This document shows, in pieces, positions 9,948-53,069 of a stretch of 64,000 bases of DNA. This DNA comes from Octopus sinensis. Lineage: Eukaryota. Where the stretch lies: assembly GCF_006345805.1 (NCBI RefSeq), contig NC_042998.1, forward strand, positions 49,042,001 through 49,106,000. The letters are read 5' to 3'. The notes beneath the pieces are model-generated. The model made no database searches. It saw only the letters and a program-made list of their open reading frames with translations, and had not been told where the DNA came from. The position numbers and the translations under genes are program-made. The stretch's first letter is position 1. The number at the start of each line of letters is the position of its first letter.

Positions 9948-11833
9948 GGCCTGACTAGTCTTGAAGACCCGGCAAGACTAGTCAGGCCATAACCCGTGGC
10001 CCCTACCTAGGACGTAGTCAGTCCACCTGTGCATACCTTCCTTCTTGTGACACTTGTGAAGACCTGTTGAGGCAAGTGAAAATCAAACAAAATCAAAATA
10101 GATGAACATCAATGGAATTTGTATCTTTGTGGTACCAGTGCCGGTGGCACACAAGAATACCATCCGAACGTGGGCGTAGCCAGTACCGCACCGACTGGCC
10201 TCCATGCTGTGGGCACGTAACAATCACCATCCAATCGTGGCCGATCGCCAGCCTAATCTGGCTCCTGTGTCGGTGGCACATAAAAAACACCATCCGAGCG
10301 TGTGGTCGTCTGCTAGCCTTGTCTGGCACCTGTGTCGGTGCACATAAAAACACCATCCGAGCGTGGCCGTTCGCCAGCCTCGTCTGGCACCTGTGTCGGT
10401 GGCACATAAAAAAAACACATCCGAGCGTGGTCGTCTGCTAGCCTTGTCTGGCACCTGTGTCGGTGGCACATAAAAACACCATCCGAGCGTGGCCGTTCGC
10501 CAGCCTCGTCTGGCACCTGTGTCGGTGGCACATAAAAAAAAACACCATCCGAGGTGGTCGTCTGCTAGCCTTGTCTGGCACCTGTGTCGGTGGCACATAA
10601 AAACACCATCCGAGCGTGGCCGTTCGCCAGCCTCGTCGGCACCTGTGTCGGTGGCACATAAAAAACACCATCCGAGCGTGGTCGTCTGCTAGCCTTGTCT
10701 GGCACCTGTGTCGGTGGCACATAAAAACACCATCCGAGCGTGGCCGTTCGCCAGCCTCGTCTGGCACCTGTGTCGGTGGCACATAAAAACACCATCCGAG
10801 CGTGGTCGTCTGCTAGCCTTGTCTGGCACCTGTGTCGGTGGCACATAAAAACACCATCCGAGCGTGGCCGTTCGCCAGCCTCGTCTGGCACCTGTGTCGG
10901 TGGCACATAAAAAACACCATCCGAGCGTGGTCGTCTGCTAGCCTTGTCTGGCACCTGTGTCGGTGGCACATAAAAACACCATCCGAGCGTGGCCGTTCGC
11001 CAGCCTCGTCTGGCACCTGTGTCGGTGGCACATAAAAACCAATCCGAGCGTGGTCGTCTGCCACCTGTGTCGTGGCGTGGCACATAAAAACACCATCCGA
11101 GCGTGGCCGTTCGCCAGCCTCGTCTGGCACCTGTGTCGGTGGCACATAAAAAACACCATCCGAGCGTGGTCGTCTGCCAGCCTTGTCTGGCACCTGTGTC
11201 GGTGGCACCTGTGTCGGTGGCACATAAAAACACCATCCGAGCGTGGCCGTTCGCCAGCCTCGTCTGGCACCTGTGTCGGTGGCACATAAAAAAAACACCA
11301 TCCGAGCGTGGTCGTCTGCTAGCCTTGTCTGGCACCTGTGTCGGTGGCACATAAAAACACCATCCGAGCGTGGCCGTTCGCCAGCCTCGTCTGGCACCTG
11401 TGTCGGTGGCACATAAAACACCGCCGAGCGTGGTCGTCTGCCACTGTGTCGGTGGCACATAAAAAACACCATCCGAGCGTGGCCGTTCGCCAGCCTCGTC
11501 TGGCACCTGTGTCGGTGGCACATAAAAAACACCATCCGAGCGTGGTCGTCTGCCAGCCTTGTCTGGCACCTGTGTCGGTGGCACCTGTGTCGGTGGCACA
11601 TAAAAACACCATCCGAGCGTGGCCGTTCGCCAGCCTCGTCTGGCACCTGTGTCGGTGGCACATAAAATCACCCACTACACTCTCGGAGTGGTTGGCGTTA
11701 GGAAGGGCATCCAGCTGTAGAAACACTGCCAGATCTGACTGGCCTGGTGCAGCCTTCGGGCTCCCCAGACACCAGTTGAACCGTCCAACCCATGCTAGCA
11801 TGGAAAGCGGACGTTAAATGATGATGATGATGA
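9945..11833 (+). mobile_element. RTE-like non-autonomous retroelement (family D) with expanded internal tandem array and (ATG)n tail
   Basis: 3' module gttggcgttaggaagggcatccagctgtagaaac...ggacgttaaa(tga)n shared with 49530-49997, 54200-54535, 45170-45325. Confidence 0.75.
10265..11666 (+). repeat. Minisatellite of ~59-62-bp units (roughly two dozen), alternating A/B variants
   Basis: A: gtggccgttcgccagcctcgtctggcacctgtgtcggtggcacata(n)caccatccgagc; B: gtggtcgtctgctagccttgtctgg... Confidence 0.95.
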
Positions 11834-28022: not shown

Positions 28023-28060
28023 TTTTGTCGATATCATCGACACCAATATTTGATCTCCGA

Positions 28061-28607
28061 AGGCGGCGAGCTGGCAGAAACGGTAGCATGCCGGACGAAA
28101 TGCTTTACAGTACGTCTGCCGTTACGTTCTGAGTTCGACTTTGCCTTTCATCCTTTCAGGGTCGATAAATTAAGTACCAGTTACTCACTGGGGGGTCAAT
28201 GTAATCGATTTATTTAATCCGTTTGTCTGTCCTTGTTTGTACCCTCTGTGTTTAGCTCCTTGTGGGCAATAAAGAAATAAGAAACGTTAGCACGCCGGGC
28301 GAAATGCTTAGCAGTATTTCGTCTGCCCCTAAGTTCTGAGTTCAAATTCCGCCGAGGTCGACTTTGCCTTTCATTGTTTCGGGGTCGATTAAATAACTAC
28401 CAGTTACGCACTGGGGTGGATATAATCGACTTAATCCGTTTGTCTGTCCTTGTTTGTCCTCTCTGTGTTTAGCCTCTTGTGGGTAGTAAAGAAATAAGAA
28501 ACGTTAATCGGGTGTCAATAAATTAAATACCAGTTGCGTATTAGGGTTGATCTAATCGACTGGCTCCCTCCCCAAAAATTTCGGGCCTTGTGCCTAAAGA
28601 AGAAAAG
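28061..28607 (+). mobile_element. Trimeric family A SINE with a single 17-bp TSD aatatttgatctccgaa
   Basis: TSD at 28045-28061 and 28608-28624. Confidence 0.85.
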
Positions 28608-29124
28608 AATATTTGATCTCCGAAAAGATGAATATGGAAAGTAAAGTTGACCTCGGCGAGATTTAAACTCTGAACTTACTGAGCCGGAAGAAATACCGCA
28701 GAACATTTTTTTCGACGCTCTAAAAATTCTGTATTTTCACCGCCCTTCCGCCAGACAAATAACGGAGGCTTCTTTGTATTGCTTTGTTTTCTTCTTTCTT
28801 TTTCATATAAATACATGTATGTGGGTGGGGAAATGAGATATAGACACTTTGCATAATTTAGCAAAAACATAGTTACTATCGGCGTAGGCGTAGCTGTGTT
28901 GAAAGAAACTTGCTTCCCAACCGCGTGGTTCCGAGTTCAGTCTCACTGTGTGGCACATTGGGCAAATGTCTTCTACTATAGCTATGAGCTGGCAAAGCCC
29001 TGTGAGAAGATTTAATAGACGGAAACTGAAAGAAGCTCGTCACGTATGTGTGTACGCACACACACAACACACACACACACACACATTCAATAACGAATTA
29101 AGAGCAGCGCTAGTGGTGTGAATG

Positions 29125-29488
29125 TTATCGATCGCACGTACTCATTGTATGTGTTTTTGTTTGTTCGACGGAATTGCTGTGAGAGAGCGCTTAGGAATAA
29201 CCCCTAATAACGCAGGGTGTTTAAAACACCTGAAAATCATAGGCAGGTGAGGCAACTCGCCCCGGGGGTGTCATAGACTGGGTATTCAATTCGTCTTCGG
29301 TTCCACTGAGGTATGTGATGTTGCTAAGCCACAAAAATGGCGAAAAACCGATATTCGTCAGTCTTAAATTCGATCCGGGGTGGGAGTTGTCTCTCCTGTG
29401 TCTGACTTTCGGGTCGTTCCCAAGCATCATCTCACAGCGAATCCGGTGAACAAACAAAATAGAAACACTGAGTGTGTGCGATCGATAA
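29125..29488. repeat. Long imperfect fold-back (rod-like hairpin or old long-TIR MITE)
   Basis: Arms 29125-29203 and 29411-29488 pair almost continuously; inner segments ~29232-29280 and ~29359-29410 also pair. Confidence 0.75.
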
Positions 29489-29507
29489 TATATATATATA
29501 TATATAT

Positions 29508-30003
29508 AGCAATAATAAATCTCTGAACGAGATGTAACCAGATAGTGTGCCTAAAGCCAGCTGGAGACGATGATCTCCTGGGGCTAAAAGCTACAGTAAC
29601 ACCCACCCTTAGTGGCTAGCCATACTGAGATGGCTATTATACTTTACGTTGTCGAGCGGTTACCGTTTACATCTCGTTCAGAGATTTATTATTGCTTGCA
29701 GACAGTTTTTCGAAATCAGTGACGGAAGTTACTAGAAAAAAACTTAAGTATTTGCATACAGGTCTTCCTTTTCATCGTAAACCGGTGATTACCGCGTGTT
29801 GACAAGAGGCAACTACCTCGAAACTGCGGTCCGTGCGTATCACTTAGGCTTACGAGAGAGGGATGACCACCTTTTGCAAATACCATAAGGGCACAGATAG
29901 TGTGCCTAAAGCCAGCTGGAAACGATGATCTCCTGGGGCTAAAAGCTACAGTAACGCCCACCCTTAGTGGTTAGCCATATTGAGATGGCTATTATACTTT
30001 ACG

Positions 30004-30005
<2 letters not shown>
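29508..30005 (+). mobile_element. Retrozyme-/Penelope-pLTR-like non-autonomous element inserted in (TA)n
   Basis: 112-bp direct repeats 29539-29650 and 29894-30005 (4 mismatches, 355-nt period), perfect 30-bp inverted repeat 29508-29537/29667-29696, internal hammerhead, (TA)n on both sides. Confidence 0.7.
29785..29843 (+). ncRNA. Type I hammerhead ribozyme motif, U3-A8 core variant
   Basis: cgcgtg-TTGACAA-GAGG caacta CCTC-GAAA-C tgcg G-TC^-cgtgcg, with outer gtgat/atcac pairing; predicted GUC cleavage after 29831. Confidence 0.75.
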
Positions 30006-30041
<36 letters not shown>

Positions 30042-30431: not shown

Positions 30432-30466
<35 letters not shown>

Positions 30467-32399
30467 CGACGGGCTTCTTTCAGTTTACATCTACCAAGTC
30501 CACTCTCAAGGCTTTGGTCGGCCCAAGGCTTAGTAGAAGACATTTGTCAAAGGTGCCACGCGGTTTGACTCAACTCGGAACCATTTGGTTCATAAGCAAG
30601 CTACTTACCACACAGTCATTCCTGCGCCTGGATGCATTTCCTATTACATATTATACGAACCTGAAACGTATTAGATGATTTCAAAATCTTACTATTTGAT
30701 TTTTGACTTCTTTATTACAGTTTGTACGAGTCGATGCCAGTACTCAACATATGCGTTGCTCAAACAGTGATTTTGTAGTAGTTTAATACGCGCGTGCGCG
30801 TTAAAGTAAAAAAAAAAAGAGCACTCAGCGCATACCTATTGGTTTGAGTCTCTCTGACGAAAATTCCATGTATATTTTCATATATATATATATATATATC
30901 ACCTTGATCACCCAGTCCGTCGGGCGTCCATTTGACACCGCTGGTCACAGCACGCTGTCCACTCCTCTCTGGATCGCGCCTTCCTCATCCACGTTGTCCC
31001 AATCGCCACGTGAATTAGGAGGGCGATTGGGACCACGTGGATACACACACACACACAAAATGTGTCTGTGTTTGTCCATCACCACCGCTTGACAACTGGT
31101 GTTGGTTTGCTTATATCCCCATACTTTAACGGTTAGAGACCGATGGAATAAGTACGGGGCTTTTTTTTTTTAAATTAAGTACTGGAGTCGATTCATTCAA
31201 CTAAAACCCTTCAACGCGATGCCCCAACATGGCCGCAATTCAGTGACCGAGACACGTAAAAGCTAAAAGATATATAAACTTACAGGGAAATATGGTATTA
31301 TAACAATTTTTATTTTACAGATGTTCTTAATCACTGGGGATAAATTTCGGTAATGTGTTTCTTAAAAAAAACCTGTTCAAGTTAGGCATTTTTTCATCCA
31401 TGTGGAGATCGTTTCATTTCGTTACTTGATCCACTTTCATATTTGATCCGTCTTTTGATCCACACCCAGATGATTCCTCGTTATCAGTGCAAAATACCAG
31501 TGATAGTCAATGAAATGACGAGAATAGCTCATCGTCCTTTTTTCTTTTCTTTTTCAATTTTCGCTTGCACCTTTAATTTTTTTTCAATTCGTTTTCTTTT
31601 TTTTTAATTCTTTGGTTTGCATATTTAAAGCAGAAAAACGGATATTGCCATTCTACAAAATAAATAAATCAATAATAATTTCAAAATAACATAAGTCGAA
31701 AATAAATCAATGAGAAGATTGCTGTAACTCGGTCGGCCCCGGTAATATATGTTTTCTATAATAGCCTGTAGTGTAATTATCTCTTGTGGAAAAAATTATT
31801 TAAATCGAACCCTAAATTCGATGGAACAAGTTAGTGTTTAGATTTTTTCTTTCGGAATTAGCTACACTAAGAATGAAATAATTGAAGAAATTACAGAAAA
31901 TATAGGTTTTAGGCGTGTGTGGTTCAGAAGCTCGCTTTGTAACCATGTGGTTTCAGGTTCAGTTTCACTGTTCGGCTCTGGCCGATCAATGCCCTGGAGT
32001 GATTTCGTAGACGAAAACTTGTGTGTATGTATGTATATATATATATATATATATATATTATTATAATATATAATATATTATAAACCCTATACATACACAC
32101 GTCCAGACCCGCTCGCTTATCTCTCAACACACACACACATATACCTATACATACCAATACGTACTAATACATCAATACATATAATACATACTAATACATA
32201 CACCACCCCATACTACGCATGTCCAGACCAATCTTACGCACTAATACTCTCTCTCACACACACACACACACCCTTTATACATACTAATACATACACCAAC
32301 CCTATACATACACACATCCGACCCCTCCCACGCACTTTTAGCTGTCCCTCAACCTTTTTATCAACCCTATTATCTCCCCTTTTTCGCTCTCGCGTCTCA

Positions 32400-48296: not shown

Positions 48297-49529
48297 AATT
48301 ATATATATATAAATATAGTCACACACACGCACACACACAAGTGAGTGAACAAACAAAATACATAGGCACTCAACACATTTAGTAGGAGTTATATATATTA
48401 TTTGTGGAGGCGCGTGGCTTAGTGGTTAGGGTGACAGCATCACGATCATAAGATTGTGGTTTCAATTCCTGGACTGGGCAACGCATTGTGTTCTTGAGCA
48501 AAACACTTCATTTCACGTTGCTCCAGTATACTACTGGAAGGTCTAATAAGACCAAAATTATGCCTGTAGCTGTCACCATATGTCAAGCTTAAACTCACTT
48601 CCCACTATATTAAGTAATTTTGATCAATTATAAATTTGGGATTATCTCCCCTGTCTTTCTTGACCAGAGTTACTAAGTAAGCTAATGATGCTTTCTTTTC
48701 ATTTATATAACTTAAAATGATTAAAACATTATTGCTGACTACATTATATATGTTAGCATTAAATACAAACTGAACAGATTAAAAGAACAAATCAACTATG
48801 GAATAGTTTACCATTTTTTGCTTTTTTTTTAAGCTGTTCTTTATATTTATTTTCTCTTTTACCATCCAACCTTTATAAAGCCTTCCTTATTGAAAGACTT
48901 CCCATCATTTGTTGACCCTTGTCATTCTGTATCATTTCTTTCTCTCTGCCTCACTTCTTTAACCAAGTCTTAAAAAGCTGACTGGGGTAGCACATTACCT
49001 TCACTCAAATTCACTATTTACACCTCTGTCCCTTTTACTGACACTCCCACATTCTCTCCCTATTTCTGTGTTTTTCGCATATTTTATTAATCTGCTCTTA
49101 TTCTATTGATTTTATTTAACATTCTGTTCACACTGTTTATCCTCTTCAACTTACATTTGTTATCTTGTTCACTTTGTTATCCCATTCACTTTATATTTGT
49201 ATTCTGTTCACCTTATGTTTCTTATCTTGTTCACCCTATGTTTGCCATCCTGTTCACCTTATGTTATCCAACTGACCTTATATCACAATATCTTGATACC
49301 ATTGAAACATTTCTTGTCACTTTGCAATATTGTAGATATCAGTACTTGGCAAGGTTTTTTCTTGACAAGTGTAGCTGTGGTAAGAAGTTTTCTTTCCAAC
49401 CACATGGTTCTTGGTTCAGTCCTACTACATGACACCATAGCCCTGGGCCAACTAAAGCTTTGTGAGTGGATTTGGTAGGCAGAAACTGAAAGAGGCTTGT
49501 CATATATATGTATGTGTGTGTGTGTATGT

Positions 49530-49997
49530 AATGGAATTTGTATCCTTGTGGTACCAGTGCCGGTGGCACATAAGAAAACCATCCGAACGTGACCGTAGCC
49601 AGTACCGCAACGACTGGCCTCCGTGCTGAGGGCACGTAACAAACACCATCCGAGCGTGGCCGTCCGCCAGCCTCGTCTGTAACCTGTGTCGGTGACACAT
49701 AAGAAAACACCATCCGAGCGTGGCCGTCAGCCAGCCTCGTCTGGCACCTGTGTCGGTGGCACATAAAAAACACCATCCGAGCGTGGCCGTCTGCCAGCCT
49801 CGTCTGGCACCTGCGTCGGTGGCACATAAAATCACCCACTACACTCTCGGAGTGGTTGGCATTAGGAAGGGCATCCAGCTGTAGAAACACTGCCATATCT
49901 GACTGGCCTGGTGCAGCCTTCGGGCTTGCCAGACCCCAGTTGAACCGTCCAACCCATGCTAGCATGGAAAGTGGACGTTAAACGATGATGATGATGA
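49530..49997 (+). mobile_element. Family D element with only ~3-4 internal units
   Basis: Colinear with 10111-11833 apart from unit number. Confidence 0.8.
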
Positions 49998-51700: not shown

Positions 51701-51834
51701 GTGTGTTTAGGGGAGTTTGTAATAATTTGTTGAAAAGAATTGTTCTTTTTTTCTCTACTGAATTGTAATGCAGAGAATTATTTTGATTTTTTTTTTTTTT
51801 TATAAGAATTCTCCAAGAATATTTCACTAATCTA

Positions 51835-51885
51835 TTTCTTTTTCTTTTCTCTTTTTTTCTCTCTTTCATTATGCTACGCAAGAAG
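51835..51885 (+). promoter_or_regulatory. 3' splice site of the Kir main exon, tandem AAG/AAG (NAGNAG) acceptor
   Basis: Pyrimidine tract tttcttttctctttttttctctctttc followed by ...acgcAAGAAGacg; frame open from here (EDVSSEWSRSGSLE) into the ORF ATG. Confidence 0.55.
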
Positions 51886-51923
51886 ACGTATCAAGTGAGT
51901 GGAGCAGAAGTGGCTCGCTCGAG

Positions 51924-53069
51924 ATGCGCAATTTCCTTCGACCAGGTAAACAATTCCGATTAGTCAGTCGAGGTGGTCATGTAAACATCAAGCAAACCGG
52001 AATCAGCAAACGCAACCAGAAATTTCTGTCAGATTTCTTCACGACACTCATTGATGTCAAGTGGCGATGGAACCTTTTAATATTTGTGGTGTCATTTATT
52101 TCATCCTGGTTACTTTTTGCTAGTTATTTCTATGTTTTGGCTCATTTACATGGAGACTTTGAAGACGACAATCCAGAAAATTGGGTGCCATGCATAGAAA
52201 GTGTCCACTCTTTTACAACTGCTTACTTATTTTCAATTGAAACTATGACAACAATTGGATATGGCTCACGTTATGTATCAGAGGAATGTCCAGGCGCAGT
52301 TCTTGGAGTACTTTTTGAATCTATTCTTGGAGCAGCTATGCAAGCAGCATTCTGTGGTTTGGTCATAGCAAAAGTGAAACGTGGTAAAAAGCGTTCTTGC
52401 ACGATATTGTTCAGTAAGGTAGCTTGTATCATGGAAGAAGATTTGCAATACAAGTTTGTATTTCGTGTGGGTGATATGCGAAAATCTCATCTGATCACTG
52501 CCAGTGCTCGAGGTTTATTTATTAAAAAAAGTTTCTCAAAATCTGGCAATAATATTCCAGTGGAATATTTCAATGTGAATTTCAAAGCTGAAGATGGACA
52601 CAACAATTTATTTTTGGTCTGGCCAACCAACGTTTACCATGAAATAGATGAAAAATCACCGTTTTATAATATTTCACGGGATAGTTTACGTCACGAGAAC
52701 TTTGAAATAATTGTGATGTTACAGGCTGTAGTCTCAACAACTGGTCGAACTGTACAAGCAAAAACTTCTTACTTGCCTTGGGATATCATTTGGGGACATC
52801 GTCTAGAACCATTAACAACATCCATTGATATTAATGGTTCACATATCGTAGATTTTACTCACTTTGACACCACATATCCAGTTCCTACCCCTTGGTGTAG
52901 TGCTCAGACTTTCAATTACATCATAAAATCAGGTCGATATACACCAGAACTGCTGCTAAACAGAGACGATATGGGTGAACTGATCAAAGAAACTGAAAGC
53001 ACCTCAGCCAAAAAGACATATACATTATTTGGCTCTATACCCGATCTAACACATCGAAATTGGATGTAG
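51924..53069 (+). CDS. Inward-rectifier potassium channel (Kir/KCNJ family), 381 aa from first ATG; probably the main coding exon, extending 5' to a splice acceptor at ~51883
   Basis: Slide helix FTTLIDVKWRW, M1, conserved Cys pair (WVPC...EECP), filter ETMTTIGYGSR, M2 ending AKVKRGKKR, cytoplasmic motifs RVGDMRKSHL, HEIDEKSPF, FEIIVML, TSYLPWDIIWGHR. Subfamily not assignable by eye. Confidence 0.97.
   Translation: MRNFLRPGKQFRLVSRGGHVNIKQTGISKRNQKFLSDFFTTLIDVKWRWNLLIFVVSFISSWLLFASYFYVLAHLHGDFEDDNPENWVPCIESVHSFTTAYLFSIETMTTIGYGSRYVSEECPGAVLGVLFESILGAAMQAAFCGLVIAKVKRGKKRSCTILFSKVACIMEEDLQYKFVFRVGDMRKSHLITASARGLFIKKSFSKSGNNIPVEYFNVNFKAEDGHNNLFLVWPTNVYHEIDEKSPFYNISRDSLRHENFEIIVMLQAVVSTTGRTVQAKTSYLPWDIIWGHRLEPLTTSIDINGSHIVDFTHFDTTYPVPTPWCSAQTFNYIIKSGRYTPELLLNRDDMGELIKETESTSAKKTYTLFGSIPDLTHRNWM

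Follow-up and report, generated by a model that had tools for sequence, protein, structure and literature searches.

The element and its surroundings

The window analyzed here is a stretch of 64,000 nucleotides of the Octopus sinensis genome (contig NC_042998.1, positions 49,042,001 to 49,106,000), numbered from its first letter. At positions 29508 to 30005 it carries a non-coding element that lies between two microsatellites, the left of which masks any target duplication (Table 1). The element is a partial tandem with a period of 355 nt, in which a 112-nt segment occurs twice in direct orientation (96% identity, 4 differences, spacing 355) and which holds one hammerhead motif and a perfect inverted repeat of 30 nt. 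A first-pass annotation had described these parts, and coordinate re-check and repeat comparison found each of them where it had been placed. The description as a retrozyme-type non-coding partial tandem with a type I hammerhead is likewise upheld by the 355-nt period, stop codons in all six frames of the unit and the descriptor match reported below, and the 355-nt unit fits the size class of non-LTR retrozymes (about 170-400 nt, non-coding, one type I hammerhead). The element has the retrozyme features examined, save that most copies, the present one among them, hold a single hammerhead.

The surroundings contain several other features. An uninterrupted frame of 412 codons, located about 22 kb from the element, encodes an inward-rectifier potassium channel (Pfam IRK and IRK_C, E<1e-50), and a MITE-like sequence adjoins the element on the left. 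Nested SINE-like repeats comprise a tandem of about 210-220 nt that has inverted arms; they also include a 173-nt repeat, of which two copies in opposite orientation lie around the element. A GC-rich tandem repeat gives rise to long spurious open frames.

Table 1. Features of the element and of the window around it. E1 and E2 are the two fixed 3' end sites of the family.
Feature	Position	Strand	Basis or remark
GC-rich tandem repeat	10224-11817 and 49339-49977
Nested SINE-like repeats	28045-28680, 28881-29053 and 30456-30628
MITE-like element, 305 nt	29155-29459		49-nt imperfect terminal inverted repeats
Left target microsatellite, (AT)10	29488-29507	.	(TA)n flanks both ends in 17/76 family loci
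30-nt second copy, inverted and 5'-truncated, with its 3' end at E2	29508-29537	-	matches 29667-29696 as reverse complement, 100% identity
First copy of the 112-nt terminal segment, with conserved hairpins, ending at E1	29539-29650	+	repeat comparison and end mapping
46-nt tail between E1 and E2	29651-29696	+	3' end counts at E1 and E2 (see text)
Non-coding spacer of the 355-nt unit	29697-29784	+	all six frames of the unit contain stops
Type I hammerhead motif, predicted cut after C29831	29785-29843	+	descriptor match and covariation
Remainder of the unit, hammerhead to terminal segment	29844-29893	+	sequence common to other copies
112-nt segment, second copy, with which the insertion ends (3') at E1	29894-30005	+	repeat comparison and end mapping
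Right target microsatellite, (TA)n	30006-30040	.	sequence
Inward-rectifier potassium channel frame	51831-53069	+	Pfam IRK and IRK_C

The hammerhead motif is probably of the dimer type

The type I descriptor matched only once on both strands of the 64-kb window, and not at all in 30 block-shuffled windows. Core positions 3 to 9, GAAA, UH and stems I to III are all present in type I order, together with a Watson-Crick 3-8 pair. The core UUGACAA at 29799-29805 corresponds to U3-U4-G5-A6-C7-A8-A9, and is accompanied by GAAA and by GUC before the predicted cut. Stem I is formed by CGCGUG/CGUGCG (6 bp, two of them G-U) with the extension GUGAU/AUCAC, and stem II by GAGG/CCUC (4 bp). In its most stable fold the monomer reaches -16.3 kcal/mol (z = -0.84), compared to -11.0 kcal/mol for the hammerhead fold, and an Rfam scan returned no hammerhead family at E<=1, its only matches being (TA)n-driven and of miRNA type.

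All stems had initially been described as intact. This is correct for stems I and II and for GUC, but stem III is weak and palindromic, since it consists of 2 bp and a 4-nt loop only (ACUGCGGU, a near-palindrome). The variants of stem III in the family are self-complementary throughout, namely ACUGCAGU (58; duplex energy -11.1 kcal/mol), ACUGCGGU (19, as in the window; -9.7 kcal/mol) and ACCCGGGU (8; -14.9 kcal/mol). Because stem III is a short palindrome, the ribozyme is likely to be of the dimer type, and its self-complementarity matches the published design of dimer-type hammerheads with a palindromic stem III (PMC4209133). Self-cleavage is predicted for the family hammerhead, and poor cleavage for a lone copy because of its weak and palindromic stem III.

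The element belongs to an abundant dispersed family

In the 2.7-Gb genome, a search with the 498-nt element gave 3681 first-look candidates, the best 40 of which were scored. The best 30 loci, the window copy itself excepted, are 90-95% identical and spread over many contigs. Exact patterns were found 178 times for the U3-A8 hammerhead, 151 times for the C3-G8 hammerhead of a sister subfamily and at least 450 times for a 30-nt tail motif, all three counts being lower bounds and all reversed controls giving 0. The element at 29508 to 30005 is therefore an ordinary copy of an abundant, dispersed non-coding family with hundreds of copies. Among the first 100 of the 178 exact U3-A8 motifs there were nine head-to-head pairs, two same-strand pairs and no long tandem array. 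One of the same-strand pairs is a true dimer (L011); the other, a 680-bp pair at L174, was rejected as a dimer since it is a local duplication that includes flanking sequence. Two tandem hammerheads occur at L010 and L011, most copies holding one. Beside one family copy (L109) lies an open frame, the start of which we take to be Hsp90-like.

Several related families were noted. Families D and E (L057:43-418, L121-L150; L171:1452-1771; L178:152-666) are about 70% identical to the unit, have the same tail and carry a C3-G8 core. The more distant family F (L173:1750-2290, minus strand, and L236-L265) has a period of 360 nt and 2699 first-look candidates, its best copies being 93-97% identical. 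We found no account of such a family from cephalopods in the open-access literature, and the accessible text of PMC13282606 is without the word 'ribozyme'; the family may already be named in a repeat library such as Repbase or Dfam.

The 3-8 pair of the core covaries

The first-pass annotation considered U3-A8 to be a compensatory change, which the family comparison bears out. From 87 loci, after 15 duplicates had been dropped, 104 hammerhead motifs were extracted by pattern, comprising 52 with U3-A8, 44 with C3-G8 and 8 others; as the loci were picked by similarity, these proportions are not genome-wide. The Watson-Crick 3-8 pair is kept in 96 of the 104, C3-G8 sisters included, and the stems and this pair covary. 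For the 97 indel-free motifs (74 distinct) the covariation score was 0.278 against 0.176 +/- 0.006, a value reached by none of 500 shuffles, although such counts stem from few evolutionary events that were inherited by many copies. In the same motifs 91.9% of cells pair in the hammerhead structure, compared to at most 53.5% in slid structures, while two of five structure measures were no better than shuffles (102/500 and 347/500). Between the cut site and the tail, two-sided changes were observed in 6 of 38 consensus pairs (10 sequences).

The C3-G8 sister subfamily is about 90% identical to the U3-A8 group. When 21 natural copies were placed in a tree, those with U3-A8 formed a group (support 0.97) nested among C3-G8 copies, with the C3-G8 families D and E outside, so that the U3-A8 state is probably derived in this family. 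The closing pair of stem II varies as well, being a C-A mismatch in families C and D and G-C in the U3-A8 group, with mixed states in a few copies (L022, L084, L113, L118). The earlier view of U3-A8 as an uncommon variant does not hold: the core reads UUGAUAA in all 33 family F motifs extracted, UUGAUAA and UUGACAA also occur at protein-coding loci of Penelope-like elements (PLEs) in the same genome, and U3-A8 has been published for about 1,300 PLE motifs of Schistosoma mansoni (Cervera & de la Pena 2014, PMC4209133). The U3-A8 core is a genuine, conserved variant, but it is neither new nor rare.

Insertions mostly end at two fixed sites and pair one of each

For the analysis of ends, 14 duplicates were dropped from 90 loci, which left 76 loci with 115 segments. 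The 3' ends fall at E1 (29641-29653) in 66 segments, at E2 (29690-29703) in 38 and elsewhere in 11, so that 104 of the 115 end at one of two sites 46 nt apart, whereas the 5' ends are scattered. An inverted partner was present in 38 of the 76 loci, and was joined head to head every time. By hand count, 28 of these loci combine E1 with E2 and one combines E1 with E1; none combines E2 with E2, and nine were unclassifiable. Independent ends would be mixed in about half of the pairs, which is hardly compatible with 28 one-of-each pairs out of 29 (p = 5e-8). The 29 include 16 pairs from sets picked without regard to ends, and all 16 were E1+E2. Selection by the tail motif gave 24 loci, 18 of them head to head, with 13 E1+E2 pairs, one that is nearly so, one that is possibly E2+E2 (L230) and three that are neither. 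Family F has its own two 3' sites, which lie 59 nt apart and account for 38 of 49 ends, and its pairs include ten one-of-each and none same-same.

This pairing across the family gives a simple account of the 30-bp inverted sequence at the left end of the window copy, which had been taken for a 5' 'cap'. What lies there is a second copy of the 3' tail of the unit itself, inverted and 5'-truncated: an E2 product of 30 nt, joined to an E1 product of 467 nt that spans the intact cleavage site. Across copies the inverted partner ranges from 30 to several hundred nt, so that a 'cap' is no feature of the family. The same observations bear on a further idea, namely that the family is DNA-based and resembles MITEs or rolling-circle elements, its inverted repeats being terminal and its hammerhead incidental. 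At 29508 to 30005 a perfect 30-bp inverted repeat at a (TA)n site does resemble such an element. However, the second inverted arm is internal rather than terminal, inverted parts vary in length and are absent from 38 of the 76 loci, fixed 3' ends contrast with scattered 5' ends, and the hammerhead pairs covary. End mapping has largely refuted this explanation, to which we attach hardly any probability.

The targets are AT-rich, with duplications of about 10 bp. Insertions inside (TA)n account for 17 of the 76 loci, and the flanks share at least 8 nt in 28 of the 59 remaining loci, compared to 3 controls. Published PLE insertions are partial tandems with an inverted 5'-truncated copy, a tail of 30-40 bp that is often found at one end only and a bias for microsatellites (PMC8557442), and are associated with duplications of 8-10 bp (PMC3846280). 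The fixed 3' ends, 5' truncation, head-to-head partners and AT-rich targets of the octopus family correspond to this signature, and likely reflect mobilization by such machinery. The two-start-site signature is unusually clean in these insertions, and the rule of a tail at one end only is here quantified (28 of 29 pairs, and again in the distant family F), which constrains two-strand priming.

No autonomous partner among the sampled Penelope-like elements

We examined 80 PLE-protein loci (30 from a GIY-YIG search, 20 further ones and 30 of a second PLE family) plus 5 follow-up regions; the searches had given 5029 and 8019 candidates, of which the 80 are a small fraction. The unit was the terminal repeat at none of these 80 loci, and the only matches of unit profiles were to a relative close by at four of them, each time an independent insertion (L057, L047/L173, L151/L171, L178). 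Conversely, when 150 unit loci and 27 family F loci were searched by tblastn with two PLE proteins, matches were obtained only at L121, L022 and L249, all of them apart from the unit, and neither the unit, with its stops in all frames, nor these loci yielded an RT plus GIY-YIG frame between repeats. The first-pass annotation had raised the prospect that the unit is merely the end of an autonomous Penelope element, and this was not so at any locus examined.

In a related explanation, an autonomous PLE has gone unsampled in its ORF-bearing copies, and the copies found are its terminal repeats (pLTRs) in truncated form; each search scored only the best 40 or 150 candidates. Such an end structure is indeed also produced by autonomous PLEs, which are mostly represented by 5'-truncated copies (PMC8557442). 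We nevertheless regard this as improbable, because in long copies it is the unit itself, with its 355-nt period, and no ORF that lies upstream of the terminal segment, and because of the tblastn outcome.

PLEs with long open RT-GIY-YIG frames are present in the genome. L038 has RVT_1 and GIY-YIG, and L151 has an open frame of 775 aa; from the cysteine linker we take PLEs of this type to be Neptune-like. The families L038, L151/L172 and L044 have open frames of 775-883 codons and 3' hammerhead-like motifs with the cores UUGAUAA, UUGACAA or CCGAAGA. A further abundant RT-GIY-YIG family (L176-L205; 8019 candidates) shows about 80% amino-acid identity and microsatellite-rich 3' UTRs. No sequence link between the octopus unit and the sampled Neptune-like families of the genome was found.

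A circular RNA intermediate is possible

Contigs from four runs, the RNA type of which was guessed, cover the unit. In one contig of run X10 (depth 12.9), 27 loose letters are joined just before 29833, at most 1 nt from the predicted cut; these presumably represent a template-switch adapter plus two bases. As X10 also contains a second adapter-like join near 29543 and 80 further loose ends, and as the data consist of contigs only, the join at the cut site is a weak hint at most. A joint of 29893 to 29539, which is the 355-nt back-joint, was found in all four runs, but genomic tandems give the same joint, which makes it no evidence of a circle.

These data relate to the first-pass model in its strong form, in which hammerhead cleavage and ligation produce a 355-nt circle, and the 112-nt redundancy results from reverse transcription past one turn; this model would be compatible with mobilization by PLEs. 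The 350-390-nt retrozymes of mussels accumulate in circular form (PMC7229834), the octopus copies span the cleavage site, and the natural L011 monomer folds compactly as a circle (-121.8 kcal/mol, compared to -84.0 +/- 5.5 kcal/mol for base shuffles). On the other hand, the same DNA would arise from uncleaved dimer transcripts, no one-strand segment observed exceeds 843 nt (about 2.4 units), and only 1 of 24 distinct main copies of one locus set (hand count) starts at the cut site. Hammerhead mutants were moreover without effect on PLE insertion in vitro (PMC11167929). Nor do 5' ends accumulate convincingly at the cut site: the 6 of 115 segment starts at 29826-29833 are too few, and lie mostly 3-6 nt upstream, to serve as evidence. 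On balance a circular RNA intermediate, as modelled, is possible, and we give this explanation somewhat less than even chances.

Probable mobilization in trans and comparison with known systems

Based on the present data, the family has probably been mobilized in trans by the RT-endonuclease of a PLE, an assessment that takes into account several observations against it. No partner was found at 80 loci, the 46-nt tail exceeds the published 30-40 bp, two of the five structure measures were no better than shuffles, nine inverted loci were unclassifiable and L230 is possibly E2+E2, and of the predicted retrozyme dimers in another study only 1 of 9 cleaved in vitro (bioRxiv 10.64898/2026.07.22.740005). 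RNA of more than one unit would be transcribed, and a PLE protein would bind its hairpin region and nick both strands of an AT-rich target. cDNA synthesis would then start internally on the RNA, at E1 for one strand and at E2 for the other, and the two truncated cDNAs would be joined head to head. Cleavage would take place mainly in hammerhead dimers, giving 355-nt monomers that are perhaps circularized. In published work, the PLE protein nicks AT-rich DNA on both strands, cDNA synthesis begins within the RNA at two sites that mark the limits of the tail, and hammerhead cleavage is unneeded (PMC11167929); pLTRs alone suffice for mobilization in trans (PMC3846280). The former study saw the strands start alike in vitro, with no difference in start site, which counts against the model.

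The features shared with endonuclease-bearing (EN+) PLEs and their pLTRs (PMC8557442, PMC3846280, PMC11167929) comprise the partial tandem, the 5' truncation, the inverted 5' copy, the tail at one end, AT-rich or (TA)n targets, duplications of 8-12 bp and a hammerhead in the repeat. Unlike these, the octopus unit is without an RT/GIY-YIG ORF, in addition to its longer tail. With the metazoan non-LTR retrozymes, the mussel representatives of which (350-390 bp) are expressed as circles and have been proposed to be mobilized by PLEs (Cervera & de la Pena 2020, PMC7229834), it shares a non-coding unit of about 350 nt, one type I hammerhead per unit, a short stem III, low GC, long target duplications and co-existing PLEs. 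It differs from them in its mostly dispersed partial copies and its U3-A8 core, and the fixed double 3' end and head-to-head inversions are unreported in the accessible text of that paper ('inverted': 0 matches). The PLE hammerheads of Schistosoma mansoni have the same core covariation and are also predicted to be of the dimer type, whereas in the octopus U3-A8 occurs in a canonical-sized hammerhead of a non-autonomous family with its C3-G8 sister. Animal retrozymes have been derived from PLE pLTRs, with 1 of 9 predicted dimers cleaved in vitro (bioRxiv 10.64898/2026.07.22.740005). The Xenopus retrozymes of that study and non-autonomous Chlamys elements such as MRC1 (PMC8557442) resemble the octopus family in proposed origin and mobilization, but the Xenopus link consists of sequence similarity and co-occurrence, and the octopus link of insertion structure with no parent found. 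Retrozymes of this size have been published before, and so have U3-A8 cores and the end structure of PLEs.

The present data add structural, not phylogenetic, evidence that animal retrozymes use PLE machinery, as well as natural C3-G8 and U3-A8 versions of a near-identical ribozyme that are fit for a side-by-side assay. Quite tentatively, and with the odds rather against it, the insertions might be read as a record of PLE integration in which an enzyme dimer is obliged to start E1 and E2 cDNAs on a hammerhead-processed, possibly circular, ORF-less 355-nt RNA, the same lineage having switched its 3-8 pair from C-G to U-A while mobile. If true, the octopus family would provide both matched natural ribozyme variants and a natural view of the PLE integration step.
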